Assembly (NCBI GenBank): GCA_963814585.1
Contig: CAWFDF010000003.1
Location: 128,001 to 192,000, forward strand
Source: an uncultured delta proteobacterium
GTDB lineage: Bacteria; Myxococcota; Myxococcia; Myxococcales; Anaeromyxobacteraceae
Length of the DNA stretch: 64,000 nucleotides
Direction: 5' to 3'
Every line of letters starts with the position of its first letter. The stretch's first letter is position 1. The notes beneath the pieces are model-generated. The model had not been told where the DNA came from. It searched no databases and saw only the letters and a program-made list of their open reading frames with translations. Both the position numbers and the translations under genes were made by a program. Shown piece by piece: positions 15,662 through 43,776 of the stretch.

Positions 15662-16969
15662 TCACCCGATGTGGTGCATGGCGGTGACGGGCTTGAGGCG
15701 GGCGGCGCGCAGGGCCGGGGCCAGCGAGGCCGCCACGGTGACCAGCGTGAGCAGGAGCACGTCCTGGGTGGCGGCCCAGCCGCGCAGCTGGAAGGTGAGG
15801 TGCTCCTGGGAGAGGAAGAGCTGCACGGCCTCCGGCACCTGGATGGCGGCGGCGTTCAGGCCCGCGGCCAGCGCGGAGGCCGCCAGCGCCCCGGAGGCGC
15901 ACCCCGCCAGGCCGAGCAGCGTGGACTCCAGCATGAAGAGCCAGAGCACCTTGCGGCGCTGCATCCCGATGGCGCGCAGCGTGCCGATCTCCCGGGTCCG
16001 CTCGCGGATGGCGATGGCCAGCGTGTTGAGGATGCCGATGACGATCACCACCATGAGGATGAAGACCAGGAGGCCGGTGAAGACCTTGATGCCCCAGATG
16101 AACTGCTTGAACTGCCCCAGCTCGTCCTCCCAGGTGGTGACGTCGAGCTTCTGGCCGGTCCAGTCCTCGCTGGGCACCGACTGGAAGAGCTTCATGTAGT
16201 AGGGCTGCGGATCCGGCTCCATGACCCGCCAGCCCTGCTTCTGGAACTCGTCCCGCAGCCGGGCCGCCACCAGGCCGGACTGCTCCCGGTCCTGGAGGAA
16301 CAGGTGGATGGCGCCGGTGGCGTCCGGCGAGAGGCCGTAGAGGCCGCGGAGGGTGTCGGCCTGCATGAAGGCGGAGAAGGCCGACATGATGCCGACGTTC
16401 TTCACCACCACCACCACCCGGAGGTCGACGGTGTTGTTGACGCCGCGCTCGGTGGGGGCCGAGAGCGTGACGACGTCCCCCACGCCCACCTTGAGCCGCT
16501 CCGCCTGCCCCTGGAAGAGGAGCAGGGTGTTGGGCCTGGCGAGCTCGTCGAGGCTGCCGCCCAGGGGCTGCAGCACCCGCCGCACCGCCGGCTCGTTCGC
16601 GATGTCGACACCGCCCAGGACCAGGTCCATGGAGGCGCTGTCCGAGACCGCCTTGGCCCAGCCCCGGCCCCGGACCGTGAAGTAGTCGAGCTCCGGGACG
16701 CTGGCCCTGGTGACCTCCAGCACCCGGTGGTAGCCGGAGACCAGCGGCGCGGCCGACCCGCTGGTGACCTTGAAGAAGCCGCCGACGTTGACGTCGCCGG
16801 TCATCAGGGTGGTGGCCGACTCCATCATGGCCGCCTCGATGCCGGCGGTGAGGGCGCCGAGCAGGACCAGCAGGCCGGTGACCATGGCCAGGGCGGCGCC
16901 GAGGAAGAGGTTGCGGCGGGTGTGACGGGTCAGGTTCCGGGCCGCCACCTGCAGGTCGACGAGGAGCAT
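15662..16969 (-). CDS. ABC transporter permease, FtsX/LolC-E family
   Basis: ARNLTRHTRR, periplasmic domain, GILNTL..AIRERTREIGTLRAIG, ARLKPVTAM. Confidence 0.92.
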   Translation of the reverse strand: MLLVDLQVAARNLTRHTRRNLFLGAALAMVTGLLVLLGALTAGIEAAMMESATTLMTGDVNVGGFFKVTSGSAAPLVSGYHRVLEVTRASVPELDYFTVRGRGWAKAVSDSASMDLVLGGVDIANEPAVRRVLQPLGGSLDELARPNTLLLFQGQAERLKVGVGDVVTLSAPTERGVNNTVDLRVVVVVKNVGIMSAFSAFMQADTLRGLYGLSPDATGAIHLFLQDREQSGLVAARLRDEFQKQGWRVMEPDPQPYYMKLFQSVPSEDWTGQKLDVTTWEDELGQFKQFIWGIKVFTGLLVFILMVVIVIGILNTLAIAIRERTREIGTLRAIGMQRRKVLWLFMLESTLLGLAGCASGALAASALAAGLNAAAIQVPEAVQLFLSQEHLTFQLRGWAATQDVLLLTLVTVAASLAPALRAARLKPVTAMHHIG

Positions 16970-16971
16970 GG

Positions 16972-19116
16972 TCAGTCCTCCGTGGACATCGCCTCGACGG
17001 GCGTGACCCGCATGGCGATCCAGGCCGGGTAGAGGGCCGAGGCGATGGCGACGCCCAGCACCAGGATGAGCGAGGCCGCGACGCTGGCCCCGCCCAGGCG
17101 CGGCAGCAGGGCCGGCCCGGAGAAGAGGAAGAAGAGCAGGTCGGTGGTGGCGGGGATGCCGCCGGTGGCGCGGACGATGGCCACCACGCCGCCCCCCAGG
17201 GCCGCTCCGGCCAGGCCGAAGAGCACGCTGACGGCGATGATCTCGACGAGCAGCATGGCGACCACGAAGCGCCGCTGCGCGCCGATGGCCCGCATGGTGC
17301 CCACCTCCTTCACCCGCTGCAGCGCCGCCATCACCATGGCATTGTTGATGATCACCAGCGCCACCCCGAAGAAGATGATGAGCGCGAAGATCAGGATGCC
17401 GCGCAGCAGCAGCACGAACTGCCCGACCATCCCCGAGGCCGCCTCCCAGTCGATGACCTTGAGCTTCAGCCCGGCCGCGTCGGCCGCCGCCTGCACGGCC
17501 ACCTGCGCCTCGCGGATCCGGGCCGGGTCCTCGAGCAGGATGGCGGCGTTGAGCGCCACGCCGTCGTCGATCTCCGCCTGGGTGTAGGCCCGCGTCTCCT
17601 CGGCCAGCGCCGCCTTCCGCTTCTCGCCCACGCCGGCCAGCAGCGACCTCTCGTCGATGGCTGCGGTGCGCGCCGACTCGACCAGCGGCGACGTCGCCCC
17701 GCCGCCGAAGAGCGCCGCCTCGGCGTCCTCGCGCGAGACCGTGGTGACCCCCATCTGCGCCCGGATCCCGGCCAGCTCCTCGGCCTTGTCCCTGGAGACG
17801 TAGCCGTAGAGGTCGCGGAACGACTGCAGGTCCATCACGCTGGTGGTGCCGGCGATGCCCGACTTCTCGATCCCCTTGAACTGGATGAAGCCGTAGACCT
17901 TGACGTTGACGGCGTTGAAGGCCCCGGTCTTGCCGGGCGCCTTGATGGTGATCGTGTCACCCACGCTGATCTGGTAGAGGCGCAGGAGCGGCGCCAGCTG
18001 GTCGTAGAAGATCCGGTAGTGGGCGTCGAAGTTCTCGTCGGAGAGGTCGAAGAGCCGCGCCAGCAGCTCCGGCAGCGCCTCGCCTTCGGGCGCCTTCAGC
18101 GCCGGCCGCAGCCGCCGCTCGGCCTCGGCCGCCTGCAGCGGGTCGAGCTGGACGAGGATCTCCCGCGCCCGGCTCCGGGTGTCCTTGACCCAGCGCTGCA
18201 GCTCCTCCTCCTTGGCGATGCGGGCGTGGAAGCGGTCACGCTTGTCCTTGATCTGGTCGAGCCGGCGCGCGTTCTTCAGCTTGAGCCACTCCTCGGCGTA
18301 CTGCTTGCCCAGCAGGATGCCGCGCTGGCCGGGCGGGATGGGGTTGCCCTCCGCCACCTCGGCCAGGTCGAAGGCCTTCATGAAGGCCTCCACGTCGGTG
18401 CCGACGTAGCGGATGAAGGTGAAGCCGGAGTCGAGCGCCAGCGGCGCGATCCGGTTCTCGAGGAACTCCAGGCCGGCCAGCCGGTCGCGCTCGAACTCCT
18501 TCCAGAAGGCGGGCGCGGCGGCCCGATCGAGGTCGGCCCGCTGCGCGGCGCGGGTCCCGGCGTCCCGGCCATTGGGGTCCACCAGGACCCGGGCCTGGGC
18601 CCGGTCCTCGCTGAGCAGGGCGATGAGGCGGCGCACGTGGGCCTGCCGCGCCTCGAGGCCCCGCCTGGCCTCCTCGTCCTTCGGGTCGACCTGGAGCTTC
18701 CGCACGTCGCCGCGGAGCTTCTCCAGCGCCACGTCGAAGGCGTTGCCGGTGGCCACCAGCGCCTGGTCAATCCCCATGGGCACGATGGTCTTCACGTTGG
18801 GGACCTTGGACAGCACCTCCTTCACCCGGGCGAAGTCGGGGATGGGATCGAGCAGCGACTCGCCGCGCAGCCCGCCGTAGAGCTCCAGCTGCCCCTCGGA
18901 GGTGGACTGGTAGACCTGGAGCTGCCCGCCCAGGCTCCCCTGGATCGAGGTGCGCATGCCGCGGTCGATGCTGTCCATGAGCGAGGCGCCCACCACCACG
19001 ATGAGGGCGCCGACCAGGACGATGAGGCCGATGATCACCGTGCGCACCCGGGCGGCCACCAGGTTGCGGAAGGCGATGCGGAGGAGGACGCGGGTGGCGT
19101 CGAGGCGGGCCGTCAT
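16972..19116 (-). CDS. ABC transporter permease, FtsX/LolC-E family with enlarged periplasmic domain
   Basis: IAFRNL, IINNAMVMAALQRVKEVGTMRAIG, YPAWIAMRVTPVEAM; more than 500 aa between TM1 and TM2. Confidence 0.9.
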   Translation of the reverse strand: MTARLDATRVLLRIAFRNLVAARVRTVIIGLIVLVGALIVVVGASLMDSIDRGMRTSIQGSLGGQLQVYQSTSEGQLELYGGLRGESLLDPIPDFARVKEVLSKVPNVKTIVPMGIDQALVATGNAFDVALEKLRGDVRKLQVDPKDEEARRGLEARQAHVRRLIALLSEDRAQARVLVDPNGRDAGTRAAQRADLDRAAAPAFWKEFERDRLAGLEFLENRIAPLALDSGFTFIRYVGTDVEAFMKAFDLAEVAEGNPIPPGQRGILLGKQYAEEWLKLKNARRLDQIKDKRDRFHARIAKEEELQRWVKDTRSRAREILVQLDPLQAAEAERRLRPALKAPEGEALPELLARLFDLSDENFDAHYRIFYDQLAPLLRLYQISVGDTITIKAPGKTGAFNAVNVKVYGFIQFKGIEKSGIAGTTSVMDLQSFRDLYGYVSRDKAEELAGIRAQMGVTTVSREDAEAALFGGGATSPLVESARTAAIDERSLLAGVGEKRKAALAEETRAYTQAEIDDGVALNAAILLEDPARIREAQVAVQAAADAAGLKLKVIDWEAASGMVGQFVLLLRGILIFALIIFFGVALVIINNAMVMAALQRVKEVGTMRAIGAQRRFVVAMLLVEIIAVSVLFGLAGAALGGGVVAIVRATGGIPATTDLLFFLFSGPALLPRLGGASVAASLILVLGVAIASALYPAWIAMRVTPVEAMSTED

Positions 19117-37966: not shown

Positions 37967-38641
37967 ATGGTGCTGGCGGTCCTCGCCGCGGCCATGGTCG
38001 GCCTCGTTCCCTCCAGCGCCACGGCCGACGCCGGCGGGCTGGCCTTGCGCCTCGACCCGACGATGGCCTCCGACCCCGCCAGGCCGGCCCCTCCTCCCGG
38101 CGCCCTCCGGGGCGCCCTGGAGGCGGCGCCACCGGACGCCGGCGCGCTCGACTTCGATCTGCTGGGCGAGGCCCCGGCGCCCACCGCCGGCCCGGACGCC
38201 GGTGCGCTCAGGACCCGCCGCACCATTCTCACGCTCCACCAGGGGCTCGGCATCGGACTGGTCGGCCTCTCGGTGGCGACCGTGGCCGTCGGCCAGCTCG
38301 ACTACAACGACAAGTTCAACGGTGGGCCGAACACTGGCAAGTACCGCGCGCCGCACGCGGTGCTCGCCTACACCACGGCCGGCGTCTTCGCCGTCACCGG
38401 CCTCACCGCGCTCCTGGCCCCGTCGCCGGTCGAGGCCCCGGCGACCCTGGATTGGGTCATGGTGCACCGCATCGCCCTCTTCACGGCCACCGCGGCCATG
38501 GCCGCCCAGGTGGGGCTGGGGATCTACACGGCCTCGCGCGAGGGCTACGTCGACCAGGCCGGCGTCGCCAAGGTCCACCTCGTCCTCGGCTACGTCACGC
38601 TGGCCGCCATCGCCGCCGGCGTCGGCGCGCTGGTCTTCTAG
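37967..38641 (+). CDS. Four-TM membrane protein with four helix-associated His residues (cytochrome b561-like)
   Basis: LTLHQGLG, APHAVLA, MVHRIAL and KVHLVLG each begin a hydrophobic helix; adjacent to yceI. Start may be 37928. Confidence 0.6.
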   Translation: MVLAVLAAAMVGLVPSSATADAGGLALRLDPTMASDPARPAPPPGALRGALEAAPPDAGALDFDLLGEAPAPTAGPDAGALRTRRTILTLHQGLGIGLVGLSVATVAVGQLDYNDKFNGGPNTGKYRAPHAVLAYTTAGVFAVTGLTALLAPSPVEAPATLDWVMVHRIALFTATAAMAAQVGLGIYTASREGYVDQAGVAKVHLVLGYVTLAAIAAGVGALVF

Positions 38642-39727: not shown

Positions 39728-40426
39728 GTGAACCACCAGCCTGCCGCCGCCACCGCCTCCCGCCGTGCCGCGCCCTCCCCGTCGCTACCCTCCACCCGCT
39801 TGCTCTCCTCCGCCCTGGTGGGCGTGGTCGGGGCCGGCGGCCTGGCCGGCTGCACCAAGTCGGCCAATCCGGTCGACTGCGCGGCACCGACCTACAACAA
39901 CACCATCACCGGGACCCCCACCAACCCCATCCCCGCCGACCTCGCGGAGTTCACCGCCAGGTGCGACGCCCGGGGTGGCTTCGTCCAGACCCACGCCTGG
40001 TGCGCGGGCGCCAACAGCTGCAAGGGGCTCTCCCTGAGCTTCGGCGTGCTCACCGACCACTCCTGCAAGGGCATGAACACCTGCGAGGGGTTCAGCTGCG
40101 TCGACGGCGTCACCGACAAGGGCCTGACCGGCGCCTCCATCTACGCCACCTCCTGCAAGGGCTGCCACGGCGACGGGAAGTTCGTGGTCCTGGCCAGGGC
40201 CGGCAGTGCCGCAGAGCGGCTGGCGGCCTTCCAGGCCACCACGCCCGAGAACGCGCTCCGCCTCCTCTCGGTCGTCGCCTTCGGCACCCAGGGCCAGAAC
40301 GCCAACGGGACCGGGTACGCCAACATGCCCATCTTCAGGCAGCAGCTCTCCCGCCCCGAGCTCCAGCGGGTGGTGGACTACGCGCGAGCCCTCCCCGCCG
40401 AAGCCGCCGAGTACGTGGCCTGGTAG
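39728..40426 (+). CDS. Lipoprotein with bufferin-like Cys repeats fused to a cytochrome c domain; putative MNIO substrate
   Basis: GAGG RBS; lipobox LAGC; CAGANSCKG and CKGMNTCEG; GASIYATSCKGCHG heme motif; NMP distal Met and LS..EL..VV.Y helix. Confidence 0.75.
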   Translation: MNHQPAAATASRRAAPSPSLPSTRLLSSALVGVVGAGGLAGCTKSANPVDCAAPTYNNTITGTPTNPIPADLAEFTARCDARGGFVQTHAWCAGANSCKGLSLSFGVLTDHSCKGMNTCEGFSCVDGVTDKGLTGASIYATSCKGCHGDGKFVVLARAGSAAERLAAFQATTPENALRLLSVVAFGTQGQNANGTGYANMPIFRQQLSRPELQRVVDYARALPAEAAEYVAW

Positions 40427-40436
40427 GCGCGGGGCG

Positions 40437-41318
40437 ATGGGGGCCCCGTCACCTGGTCCGACGGGGCCGTTGACCTCGCCGGGTCGCCAGCTCGATCCCC
40501 TGGCGCGCCGCGTGGCCCGCGACGCGCTCGGGATCGGCCTGCGACCGCAGCACTACCCCGAGTTCTTCGAGCAGTGGCCGGAGCTCGGCTACCTGGAGAT
40601 CATCAGCGACAACTTCATGGGGGCCGCGGCCCTCCCGCTCCGGCACCTGGAGCGGTTCCGGGAGCGCTACCCGATCGTGCTCCACGGCGTCGGCCTCAAC
40701 CTCCTGGGCGAGGCGCCCCTCGACGAGGCCTACCTCGACCGGCTGGCGCGGCTGGCCGACCGCGTCGACGCCCCGTTCGTCACCGATCACCTCTGCTGGA
40801 CCGGCGCCCACGGCATCTCGCACCACGACCTGCTCCCCGCCCCGTACCTCCCCGAGCTGGTCGAGCTGGCGGCCGAGCGGGCCGCGGCGGTCCAGCGGCG
40901 GCTTGGGCGGCCCTTCGGCATCGAGAACCTCTCCACCTACCTGGAGTTCACCACCTCGACGATGACCGAGTGGGAGTTCTACACCTCGGTGGTGAAGGCC
41001 TCGGGCTGCTGGTTCATGCTCGACGTCAACAACGTCTACGTCTCCAGCGTCAACCACGGCTTCGATCCCCGCGCCTACCTGCGCGCCATCGACCCCTCGA
41101 GGGTGCTGCAGGTCCACCTGGCCGGGCACTCGGTGGAGGCCGACGGCACCATCGTCGACACCCACGACCACCCGGTCTGCGACGAGGTCTGGCGCCTCTA
41201 CGCCGAGACCTGGCGCGCCGGCGGGCCATTCCCCACCCTGCTCGAGTGGGACGGCCGAATCCCGCCGCTGCGGGAGGTGGTTGGCGAACTCGAGAAGGCG
41301 CTGGAGGTCCGCCGGTGA
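40437..41318 (+). CDS. DUF692 multinuclear non-heme iron oxidative enzyme (MNIO, BufB/MbnB-like)
   Basis: GIGLRPQHY, LHGVGL, TDHLCW, DLLP.PY, IENLSTY, LDVNNVYVSSVNHG, VHLAGH, DTH, LLEWD. Confidence 0.95.
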   Translation: MGAPSPGPTGPLTSPGRQLDPLARRVARDALGIGLRPQHYPEFFEQWPELGYLEIISDNFMGAAALPLRHLERFRERYPIVLHGVGLNLLGEAPLDEAYLDRLARLADRVDAPFVTDHLCWTGAHGISHHDLLPAPYLPELVELAAERAAAVQRRLGRPFGIENLSTYLEFTTSTMTEWEFYTSVVKASGCWFMLDVNNVYVSSVNHGFDPRAYLRAIDPSRVLQVHLAGHSVEADGTIVDTHDHPVCDEVWRLYAETWRAGGPFPTLLEWDGRIPPLREVVGELEKALEVRR

Positions 41319-42193
41319 CGGCCCGGGTAGCCCCTCCCTGGCTCTCCGAGCTGCAGGCGGCCTTCGGCGCGCTGCTGCAGAGACCCCTCGACAGGTCCAC
41401 CGGGACGCTGCGGGCCCGCACCGAGGACTACCGGCACGGGCTGGTCGCGCTGGTCAAGCCCGGCTCTGGCCTCGACGCCGGGGGGCGGCTGGCCGTCTAC
41501 CACCGCCAGTACTGGTTCCGGCTGCTCACCGCCTTGCAGGACGACTTCCCGCTGCTGGCCCGCCTGCTCGGCTTCTGGGAGTTCAACGGCTGGGCGGCGC
41601 GGTACCTGGTCGAGGCTCCCCCCGGTGGTTCGAACCTGCAGCGCGCCGGCGACGCCTTCCCCGCTTTCCTCCAGGCCGTCACCGGCCCGGGGTGGGTGGG
41701 CGGAGCGGGCGGCGACCAGATCCCGCGCGCCGCCCTGCTGGAGGCCGCGGCCATCGACGGGGCCTGGCGGGCGGTGCTGGCGGCGCCCGCCGAGCCGCCC
41801 CTCGAGCCGGCCGGGATCGAGGCGTCCAGCTGGCCCTCGCTCCGGCTGCGCCCCCGGGCCTGCTTCGCCGTCGTCGAGGAGCACTGGCCGCTCTGCGAGC
41901 TCCGGCGGCGGCTGGCCGGGCTGCCGGTCGAGCGGGCGGCGCCGCTGCCGCCGCGCCACGGCTCGGCGCGCTGGTTCCTGGTGGGCTGCACCGGGGCCTC
42001 GGTGCTGGAGCGGGAGCTCGGGCCGCTCCAGGCCCGGCTGCTGCGCCTGCTGGGCGAGCTCCCGGTCGGGCAGGCCCTCGCCAGGCTGGAAGCCGGGTGT
42101 GACGAGGCGGCGCGGCGCGACCTGCCCGGGCTGGTGGAGCGCTGGCTGGCCGAGGCGGTCGGCCTCGGCTACTTCGCCGGGGAGGCACGTTGA
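41315..42193 (+). CDS. DUF2063 (HvfC/BufC-like) MNIO partner protein
   Basis: LSELQAAFGALL...RLAVYHRQYWFRLLTALQDDFP.L..LLG...F...A.RY...P; GTGA overlap with DUF692. Confidence 0.88.
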   Translation: MTARVAPPWLSELQAAFGALLQRPLDRSTGTLRARTEDYRHGLVALVKPGSGLDAGGRLAVYHRQYWFRLLTALQDDFPLLARLLGFWEFNGWAARYLVEAPPGGSNLQRAGDAFPAFLQAVTGPGWVGGAGGDQIPRAALLEAAAIDGAWRAVLAAPAEPPLEPAGIEASSWPSLRLRPRACFAVVEEHWPLCELRRRLAGLPVERAAPLPPRHGSARWFLVGCTGASVLERELGPLQARLLRLLGELPVGQALARLEAGCDEAARRDLPGLVERWLAEAVGLGYFAGEAR

Positions 42194-43776
42194 CCCCCTC
42201 GCCGGCACCGGCGACCGGCGAGCCGCCGCTCGGGACGGCCGTACCGGTGCGACGCCTCCTCCTCGCGCTCGACGGCTTCGAGCCGACCGGAGGCGGACTC
42301 TCCCCCTTCGTCGAATTCCTCCTCCGGATCAGGACCGGGCTCACGGCCTCGGACCAGGCGGCGGTGCGCCAGGCTGCCGGCGAGGTGCTGGCCCACCCCG
42401 GCGCCGCGACCAGCGGTCCGTGGGCCATCGCGTTCGCGCTGCTCCTGGCCGCACCGGCACCGGCCTCCGCCCTGGCCCGCTGGCGCCGGGAGCGCTGCGC
42501 CGACCCGGGCCCGCTCCGCGCCGCCGCCGGCCTGCTCGACGCCGTGGTCGCGGAGCTGGCCACCTCGTCACGCCCCTTGCTGCAGATCGACACCGGGACC
42601 ACGCTGGCCGATCCCTGGCGTCGCTGGCTCGGCGAACGACTGGAGGCGGACCCACGGGTCGCGCCGGCCCACACCCGTGACGGCGCCGGGCCCGGCCAGG
42701 CCCTCGTGGCCGGATGGCCGGAGCAGCCGCTGCTGCGGAGGTTCCTCCTCGCCGCCGCCATGTGCGGCGAGGCGTCCCCCGCCCACCCCCTCCTCTCGGC
42801 CATCGGGGTCGGCCCGGACGACCTCGACGGCGCCGTCGACCTGATCGACCAGCGGCTCTGCGGCGAGGGGGGCGAGGACGGCGGCGTGTTCCTCGACGAC
42901 CTGGGCTACCAGCACCCCGGCTTCCCGGGCCTCCTCACGTATCGCTTCGTCGACCCGGCGCTGCGCCAGGGGATCCTGGCGGGTGAGGCCCCAGGGGCCG
43001 TGGCCGGTGAGGCGCGGCGGCTGCGCATCGCCGTGCGGTCCCGCCTGGAGGTCACCACCCGGGCCATCGCCCAGCTCTACGCCAACCTGGGCGGGCTGGA
43101 GGGTCCGCCGGCTGGGGACGGCCCCCGACGGCGGCTTCGCCTCTGGGTCGGCGAAGCCGACGAGGCCAGCCTCGCCGAGACCCTGGCCGAGGAGCTGCGC
43201 CGCGGCGCCGCCGCCCCGCGTGCCCTCCTCGCCACCGCCCTCCGCGACGGCGCGCTTGCCACCCCTCAGCGGCTCGCGCTGCTGGCCGCGGCGCAGGACC
43301 GGGCCGAGGCGGCGGAGCCGGAGCTGGCCCTCGCCATCCACGTGGCCCGGACCCGGCTGCTCCACGAGGCCGGTCGCCTGGACGATGCCGGGCGCAGCGC
43401 CGCCGAGGGACTCCGCTGGGCCGAGGTCCACGGGGAGGCCGGCGACGGCGCCCTCCTCTTCCTCGCGGCCCGCTGCCACCGTGAGCAGCGGCGGCTGGAG
43501 GCTGCGGCGCAGGCCTTCACCGACGCCGCCGGCGTGGCCTCGCTACCGGATCCGGCCGGGAGGGTCAACTGGCACGACCTGGGGGTCTGCCTCGCCGAGG
43601 CCGGGCGCTGCCACGCCGAGCGCGGCGACTGGACCGCGGCGATCCAGCTTCTCGGCGAGGCGGCCATCCACCTGCGGCGCGGCGACCTGGGCGGCACCGT
43701 CCACCGGGATCAGCTGGATCTGGTCCTGAGAAACTTGGCCTCGTGCACGGCCCAGCGCCTGGGGCTCCGGCGGTAG
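42190..43776 (+). CDS. Hypothetical protein with TPR-like C-terminus
   Basis: Long ORF coupled by a TTGA overlap; helical repeats (LFLAARCH...AAQAF; LAEAGRCH...AAIQLL). Confidence 0.6.
   Translation: MTPSPAPATGEPPLGTAVPVRRLLLALDGFEPTGGGLSPFVEFLLRIRTGLTASDQAAVRQAAGEVLAHPGAATSGPWAIAFALLLAAPAPASALARWRRERCADPGPLRAAAGLLDAVVAELATSSRPLLQIDTGTTLADPWRRWLGERLEADPRVAPAHTRDGAGPGQALVAGWPEQPLLRRFLLAAAMCGEASPAHPLLSAIGVGPDDLDGAVDLIDQRLCGEGGEDGGVFLDDLGYQHPGFPGLLTYRFVDPALRQGILAGEAPGAVAGEARRLRIAVRSRLEVTTRAIAQLYANLGGLEGPPAGDGPRRRLRLWVGEADEASLAETLAEELRRGAAAPRALLATALRDGALATPQRLALLAAAQDRAEAAEPELALAIHVARTRLLHEAGRLDDAGRSAAEGLRWAEVHGEAGDGALLFLAARCHREQRRLEAAAQAFTDAAGVASLPDPAGRVNWHDLGVCLAEAGRCHAERGDWTAAIQLLGEAAIHLRRGDLGGTVHRDQLDLVLRNLASCTAQRLGLRR

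Follow-up and report, generated by a model that had tools for sequence, protein, structure and literature searches.

A bufferin-like cysteine domain joined with a class I cytochrome c in front of an MNIO–DUF2063 pair: a conserved family of predicted lipoproteins and its possible copper–heme site

Introduction

The question raised by one operon of an uncultured delta proteobacterium (Anaeromyxobacteraceae; assembly GCA_963814585.1, contig CAWFDF010000003.1, positions 128,001 to 192,000, a stretch of 64,000 nucleotides hereafter called the window) is why the gene in the precursor position, directly ahead of a coupled MNIO (DUF692)–DUF2063 pair, encodes a predicted lipoprotein that ends in a complete class I cytochrome c. 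Systems of the captophorin or bufferin type are marked by the conversion of Cys to 5-thiooxazole (about −4 Da each, with a band at 305 nm), by copper binding and by protection against copper stress. An earlier note on this DNA had read the protein as a membrane-anchored, bufferin-like metal site wired to a heme. The present analysis shows that the gene belongs to a real and conserved family of fusions, apparently undescribed as a family, which would be assigned to a captophorin/bufferin-like cluster and not to BufA2.

The operon and its precursor-position gene

The core features of the operon are the following.

39728..40426, plus strand: precursor-position gene, a predicted lipoprotein of 232 aa with a six-Cys/two-His bufferin-like domain and a class I cytochrome c
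39728..39853, plus strand: predicted signal peptide, residues 1–41, with the motif S-x-x-L-L-x-A-A-L-x-G-L-L (residues 22–34) and the lipobox Cys42 at its end
39941..40102, plus strand: Cys6-His2 domain, residues 72–125, with a putative helix bearing C79-x3-GG, two C-x-G-x-N-x-C loops, H89, H111 and a terminal C124; the predicted substrate of the MNIO and predicted copper site
40115..40414, plus strand: class I cytochrome c domain, residues 130–229, with CXXCH at 40154–40168 and the distal Met200 at 40325–40327
40437..41318, plus strand: MNIO (DUF692), BufB equivalog, in which the putative Fe ligands and the catalytic Asp272 are preserved
41315..42193, plus strand: DUF2063 partner, PME type 1, 292 aa, its start overlapping the MNIO stop

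Translation of the first gene bears out the motifs that the earlier note had read, namely LAGC (residues 39–42), CAGANSCKG (92–100), CKGMNTCEG (113–121), CKGCH (143–147) and NMP (199–201), and the cytochrome c family PF13442 is matched above its cut-off (29.3 bits against 27) over residues 134–218. The count of Cys had been set too low: the two repeats with their four Cys are present, and the domain as a whole holds six conserved Cys and two His (89 and 111). GAGG stands ahead of the GTG start, the ATG of the MNIO (40437) lies 10 nt past the stop of the precursor gene, and the TGA of the MNIO overlaps the GTG of the DUF2063 gene at 41315, so that the claimed position upstream of a coupled pair holds as well. 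Searches with hidden Markov models (HMMs), which had been proposed as a check, matched BufB (NCBIfam NF050167, 317.5 bits against a cut-off of 310), DUF692 (PF05114, E 1.9e-96), DUF2063 (PF09836, E 6.1e-15) and cytochrome c, and failed for BufA2 (NF050166, 21.2 bits against 60).

The marks by which a captophorin/bufferin cluster is recognized are thus found, with a BufB-type MNIO, a Cys-rich precursor with a lipoprotein signal 5′ of it and, directly after the MNIO, a PME type 1 partner with a putative domain of the type of the recognition element of post-translationally modified peptides that are ribosomally synthesized (RiPPs). No other Cys-rich secreted candidate was seen 5′ of the MNIO in the window. 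A sigma-70 promoter search found none, there was no plasmid match, and no RNA holder was listed.

A conserved family of fusions

A search with the single sequence returned 11 proteins, and their profile matched 921 cluster representatives (E 0.001), of which 96 remained at 1e-30. The family was drawn from the best 150 of the 921 profile matches; 157 proteins were aligned and sorted into 103 fusions, 44 heme-less relatives and 10 others, and two false fusions were then removed (P0134, a tandem repeat, and P0145, a multi-heme protein). Among the matches listed there are, therefore, at least 101 full-length fusions beside the 44 heme-less relatives, a set that retains the six Cys and includes P0111, which looks like a truncated fusion, and two tandem repeats. 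A chance or frameshift fusion is ruled out by the 101 homologues, in which every named feature is conserved.

The fear voiced in the earlier note that the Cys repeats might not be conserved is not borne out, as all six Cys of the domain (79, 92, 98, 113, 119 and 124) occur in 95 of the 101 fusions. C92, C113, C119 and C124, together with C143, C146 and H147 of the heme site, are kept in every fusion, while M200 is found in 100, H111 in 97 and H89 in 77. The lipobox Cys is present in all 92 fusions that cover the region, the lipoprotein call being made from the sequence pattern. The fusion is kept over about 100 sequence clusters at 26–70% identity with invariant heme ligands, and the linker from C124 to C143 ranges from 17 to 36 residues, with 18–19 residues in 67/104. 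Lys or Arg follows C98 in 72/97 fusions and C113 in 66/101, and follows the heme Cys143 in 8/101. In 128 aligned proteins the signal-peptide motif is conserved at L25 (115), A29 (117), G32 (117) and L33 (112), with 4–14 residues between G32 and the lipobox Cys in 127; since the signal peptide was within the search profile, some bias in this conservation is possible.

The named carriers are Myxococcota and Oligoflexus, and the cultured ones are Cystobacter fuscus DSM 2262 (WP_002626552.1) and Oligoflexus tunisiensis (WP_141734387.1), where the proteins are annotated only as cytochrome c or hypothetical. The system is patchy, since 40 relatives of the window genome yielded just one full fusion and one heme-less form, along with one cytochrome-only match. 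The cytochrome-only matches that were inspected look like fragments starting at or just past the end of the Cys domain. Expanded heme motifs occur in 10/101 fusions (CX3CH in 8, CX4CH in 1 and CX5CH in 1; for example P0011, P0016, P0048, L009 and L016). In the fusions P0017 and P0052 the tether that links the lipobox to the Cys domain contains a PF11617 (Cu-binding_MopE) motif.

The Cys domain is apparently a permuted bufferin relative

When aligned with eight canonical BufA2 sequences by hhalign, C92, C98, C113 and C119 fall on Cys I, II, IV and V (probability 96), and the two C-x-G-x-N-x-C loops of the Buf2 class are present. The N-terminal C79-x3-GG aligns weakly with the canonical C-terminal helix Cys (probability 2–19), a hairpin stands in the place of Cys III, and C124 is new with respect to canonical BufA2. 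The Cys domain would thus apparently be a circularly permuted relative of the bufferins. Membership in canonical BufA2 was rejected, because the 60-bit cut-off is reached by 0/17 family members and by 3/3 canonical controls, and because the canonical order of Cys I–VI with the helix Cys last is not found.

The permuted six-Cys unit also occurs naturally in tandem, and P0103, P0110, P0134 and P0152 are heme-less lipoproteins with 2–4 copies of it. The heme-less form (L017–L024, L050, L053–L060) often has an extra His (H-x-H-C) and a long low-complexity tether. In two loci (L030, 8944–9405; L041, 9194–9679) the fusion is accompanied downstream by a heme-less copy, and this copy lacks the Cys that corresponds to C98. 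When the alignment of the domain was searched against PDB sequences, only cytochromes were matched, and Foldseek with the Cys domain alone, short of the wide search, found no match at E 0.001, hence no new fold is claimed.

The MNIO, its partner and their place beside the fusion

An MNIO lies directly 3′ of the fusion gene in 31 of 45 loci, near-duplicates included, and in all 16 of those on genome contigs; in 5 further loci it lies a few kb upstream on the same strand, which gives 36/45. Homologues mostly without DUF692/DUF2063, a prospect that the earlier note had counted against itself, are therefore not what was found. DUF2063 comes next in 24 of the 31 loci with a downstream MNIO, and the other 7 end within 1 kb. 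Start/stop overlaps of operon genes occur in Cystobacter and Oligoflexus, and the heme-less forms are convergent or divergent to MNIO–DUF2063 in 5/8 genome loci. In L009 (6672–7513, Cystobacter fuscus NCWS) the MNIO is in two frames, and in L040 (7621–8721) the DUF2063 match is interrupted, in both cases through sequencing error or decay.

The putative metal positions (His/Asp/Glu/Asn) are invariant in 38/38 aligned family MNIOs. Asp272, matched through the E-W/R-D motif to FonB Asp249, which is the proposed catalytic base of a captophorin MNIO (PMC13097082), is kept in all 36 family MNIOs with a residue there. The residue after it, an Asp in Cys-Lys-type MNIOs, is Asp in 7/7 complete canonical MNIOs. 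In a post hoc look, 5/5 precursors without a Cys-Lys/Arg dyad have an MNIO with Ala at position 273; with about three independent cases this is a lead only. A quick tree placed 40 family MNIOs on one side of a branch (Shimodaira–Hasegawa-like approximate likelihood ratio test 100), with 7 canonical ones on the other; because of the small outgroup and the long branches that join at the root, no firm conclusion is drawn on whether the fused or the heme-less form came first.

Among the neighbours, DUF3570 recurs in 13 loci, a RegB-like kinase family in 8 and a RegA-like regulator in 6; YtkA genes come in two clusters (4 + 3 loci) plus L016, and TonB receptors also recur. DUF3570 clusters have been described as extracytosolic redox systems (PMC8238504). 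No conserved partner oxidase or reductase gene beside the operon is found among the annotated recurrent neighbours. In L043 (6628–9329) a Csp1-like gene for copper storage comes after the fusion gene, with genes for MbnP and MbnH convergent to them; the RegAB and Csp1 scores of the neighbours are below their cut-offs.

The cytochrome and the two-domain model

By its motifs and matches the C-terminal domain is a class I cytochrome c of the His/Met electron-transfer type. Its part of an AlphaFold2 model, computed for residues 42–232 from 134 sequences, has a best structural match with Z 8.0 (root-mean-square deviation 2.6, 71 aligned), and heme c proteins fill the top 50 rows; the ESM Atlas, queried with the homologue P0009, returned nothing but generic cytochrome c clusters (at 0.87). 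The model as a whole reached a mean predicted local distance difference test score (pLDDT) of 88.9 and a predicted template-modelling score (pTM) of 0.80, the latter hardly to be expected from two domains placed without relation to each other; the Cys domain alone gave a pLDDT of 77.9. The top covarying pairs include the cross-domain pairs T88–N191 (z 5.4) and F85–L180 (z 4.8). Residues 85, 87, 90 and 91 are fusion-specific: at position 85 the fusions mostly have an aromatic or aliphatic residue and the heme-less relatives more often have a polar one, and position 91 is His in 33/44 of the latter and mostly small in fusions. The high pTM, the cross-domain covariation, the short modal linker and these residues suggest that the Cys and cytochrome domains may share a fixed interface, close to the hairpin that precedes the distal Met.

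A proposed route to a copper–heme protein

We tentatively prefer, at somewhat less than an even chance, a mechanism in which a tethered lipoprotein carries a thiooxazole copper site, made by the MNIO and DUF2063 proteins and packed on the His/Met heme, and in which the heme reduces Cu(II) to bound Cu(I). In a first step, which is very probable, the cytoplasmic MNIO–partner pair would bind the unfolded precursor, possibly via the conserved signal-peptide motif, and up to four of its Cys would be oxidized (about 4 Da each) to 5-thiooxazoles. C98 and C113, with their Cys-Lys/Arg-Gly signature, would be the best-supported targets, C79 would be joined in one disulfide with C124 or C92, and Cys42 and the CXXCH motif would necessarily be spared. 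As to recognition, preliminary results in PMC12452194 make the signal peptide a part of the recognition sequence, and in PMC11626156 it was dispensable on overexpression. For Buf2, a shift of −4.03 Da is reported on the four central Cys, and a disulfide likely joins the outer two (PMC11626156), with −18 Da in total.

In a second step, by standard pathways, the protein would be exported by Sec, lipidated at Cys42 and furnished with heme on C143 and C146, with H147 and M200 as axial ligands. The thiooxazoles, perhaps together with H89 and H111, would then bind copper, a third step that is probable, and electrons would be exchanged between the hexacoordinate heme and the bound copper, for which the expectation is moderately better than even. 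A flow from heme to copper would be favoured since bufferin 1 has a tighter hold on Cu(I) than on Cu(II) (PMC11626156), which by standard thermodynamics should put the bound couple above free copper. The outcome of heme-to-copper flow would be a self-reducing copper trap or a Cu(I) loader in the periplasm. Support for the mechanism is seen in the MNIO order and in the YtkA, MbnP/MbnH, Csp1-like, TonB receptor, RegAB-like and DUF3570 genes near the loci.

Several points weigh against this proposal. What was observed is gene order and conservation, and the modification with all later steps would follow from them by inference. Nine of the 45 fusion loci have no MNIO in the examined DNA; most of these are contig ends, and 6 carry the DUF3570 neighbour common to all 5 upstream-type loci, and L028 and L037/L038, with several kb of flank without MNIO, are real local negatives. 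The near-duplicates among the loci make the counts overstate independence. The Cys-Lys-linked Asp of the MNIO is kept in just 17/36 family members and is Gly in the window, and a test set beforehand, of an acid at MNIO position 273 against two or more precursor Cys-Lys/Arg dyads, gave 11/9 versus 9/7 (p=1.0). The heme motif of the window protein itself reads C-K-G, like a substrate site, and the 44 heme-less relatives show that the Cys domain works without heme. On the structural side, the covariation is a shallow analysis (mutual information with average product correction, 134 sequences), AlphaFold models the Cys in the unmodified state, and the packing was judged from scores and not from model coordinates. 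The direction of electron flow, finally, is a thermodynamic argument from a different bufferin.

The genomic and structural evidence is also compatible with the same modified copper–heme protein working otherwise, with copper as the donor of electrons to the heme (a Cu(I) oxidase that needs no O2 and drains into the respiratory chain) or with a catalytic copper site for nitric oxide, nitrite or peroxide that is fed by the heme, as in three-domain heme-copper nitrite reductases. The conserved His89 and His111 could make the site unlike a pure chelator, and RegAB-like regulators stand near up to 8 fusion loci. The tighter Cu(I) binding by the thiooxazoles of Buf1 disfavours an oxidation of bound Cu(I) by a typical His/Met heme; further points against this alternative are the absence of a conserved oxidase or reductase gene beside the operon among the annotated neighbours and the matches to nitrite reductases in the PDB sequence search, which are generic cytochrome c (E 0.024). 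That bufferins protect against copper excess (PMC11626156) speaks for it, and on balance we regard this alternative as rather unlikely.

Unlikely, and slightly more so, is an ordinary bufferin-like modified chelator to which the cytochrome c is attached as a module of its own, serving as scaffold, docking handle or carrier, without electron exchange with the metal. It would explain why the 44 heme-less relatives hold six Cys, often beside the same MNIO group, and why the linkers vary in length, and bufferins fused to several unrelated domains are on record (PMC12452194). The retention of the fusion and its heme ligands across about 100 clusters argues against it, as do the prevalence of the 18–19-residue linker, the fragment-like look of the inspected cytochrome-only matches and the fusion-specific residues that suggest an interface. 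Quite improbable is a Cys domain left unmodified (its Cys paired in three disulfides or forming a simple metal site of thiolates and His) beside an MNIO pair that acts elsewhere or has decayed, its adjacency inherited: the failed BufA2 HMM, six Cys that can pair evenly, the fusion and heme-less loci without a nearby MNIO and the split MNIO of one Cystobacter strain would suit it, against a precursor–MNIO–DUF2063 order as in bufABC in 31/45 loci, invariant MNIO active-site positions, a signal-peptide motif that is position-specific independently of lipobox spacing, and C98, the one Cys that is lost alone in several sequences, which disfavours a three-disulfide fold.

Relation to described systems

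The nearest relative is Buf2 (Caulobacter vibrioides buf2ABC; Buf_6/12Cys; PMC11626156, PMC12452194), which shares the order precursor–MNIO–DUF2063 without doxX, the BufB-type MNIO above cut-off, the Sec-type signal, the two C-x-G-x-N-x-C loops and six Cys, and of which about 16% are lipoprotein forms (PMC12452194). The present family differs in that the helix with C-x3-GG is N-terminal and not C-terminal, Cys III is absent, C124 is new and two His are conserved, and also in the fused His/Met cytochrome c, the long tether, the failed BufA2 HMM and the separate grouping of its MNIOs.

Fusions that likewise join a bufferin-type domain to a class I cytochrome c are listed in PMC12452194, namely Buf1/Cytochrom_C (WP_017136223.1) and Buf1/Cytochrom_C/FGE-sulfatase (WP_160059411.1); they are set apart by a four-Cys DUF2282 domain, are described as few and are uncharacterized. 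The Buf2 fusions listed in that part of the paper are MerC/Buf2 only, with no Buf2-type cytochrome fusion. The earlier note was aware of no description of the architecture, and this can be kept in part: no paper on the fusion family was found in a literature search made mostly by title and abstract start, in which subscription papers were thinly covered and the supplementary alignments of PMC12452194 and PMC13056109 could list the family, whereas Buf1–cytochrome c fusions and lipoprotein Buf2 were already in print, which lowers the surprise.

Captophorins (fontiphorin, oxazolin/HvfA and gonophorin; PMC13097082) are similar in their MNIO with PME type 1 partner, Cys-rich precursor, Cys-Lys dyads and catalytic Asp; the members characterized are heme-free peptides, and the Cys-Lys-linked Asp is relaxed here. 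The RiPP–lipoprotein hybrids DybA and NedA (PMC12636315, PMC13056109) are MNIO substrates with a lipoprotein signal in which the lipobox Cys escapes modification and receives the lipid, and lipidated MNIO products do exist in the case of NedA (PMC12636315). As reported there, both are short peptides without a redox cofactor, and the 50–160 aa cut-off of that survey excludes the present fusions. A published 'CxxxxC' precursor family (PMC12452194; cluster X of PMC13056109) has a signal peptide, CxxxxC and clusters with DoxX and often Lactamase_B_2; C119-x4-C124 fits the pattern, there is no DoxX or Lactamase_B_2 among the annotated recurrent neighbours, and the families were compared by description only, so that the heme-less form may overlap with it. 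The seed set of PMC12452194 consists of precursors that bear a signal and are shorter than 200 aa. Its genome table gives zero Buf_6-12Cys hits for a Cystobacter genome with a family MNIO. Since the published tables thus show a Cystobacter MNIO without a Buf2 precursor, the fusion family fills a gap of orphan MNIO–DUF2063 pairs in myxobacteria.

Neighbouring genes and the window genome

Three accessory genes precede the operon core on the plus strand.

37967..38641, plus strand: membrane protein without Pfam family, first of the upstream run; homologues in L001, L026 and L074
38650..39216, plus strand: YceI-like secreted protein overlapping the di-heme gene; homologue in L001
39213..39641, plus strand: di-CXXCH lipoprotein, 86 nt 5′ of the precursor gene, accessory and not core

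The di-CXXCH lipoprotein has no assigned family and has a homologue in 4/45 fusion loci; its longer relatives often have additional cytochrome c domains, and a DUF2063 domain was found in 0/30 of its longer homologues by precomputed Pfam hits. Downstream, an open reading frame of 528 aa (42190–43776, plus strand) with weak TPR matches overlaps the DUF2063 stop and does not recur in related loci. Cytochrome c assembly genes are present in the window genome, where 5/6 PF01578 matches are above cut-off. The same genome holds a separate canonical buf2 operon (G000:C12, about 15800–17900, minus strand; L073, 3010–6555), with a YceI-like gene upstream, named from its sequence with no Pfam hit, and a secreted peroxiredoxin-like (AhpC/TSA) protein downstream. 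The MNIO of this second operon and that of the window share 47% identity.

What the family would mean

The MNIO products characterized to date are peptides that have been regarded as passive copper chelators, and PMC12452194 leaves open whether MNIOs modify real proteins. The fusion family offers a direct test, with the heme as a built-in spectroscopic reporter of redox at a thiooxazole–copper site, and it poses a sharp question of selectivity, because the MNIO must spare both the lipobox Cys and the CXXCH motif. It is very nearly an even prospect that an MNIO here makes the metal site of a genuine redox protein, a single chain that would acquire its thiooxazole/His copper ligands, its covalent heme and its lipid anchor in three compartments, so that a permuted bufferin would have given rise, in a family of about 100 sequence clusters, to a heme-copper enzyme or to a copper loader fed with electrons, the cofactor being made after translation.

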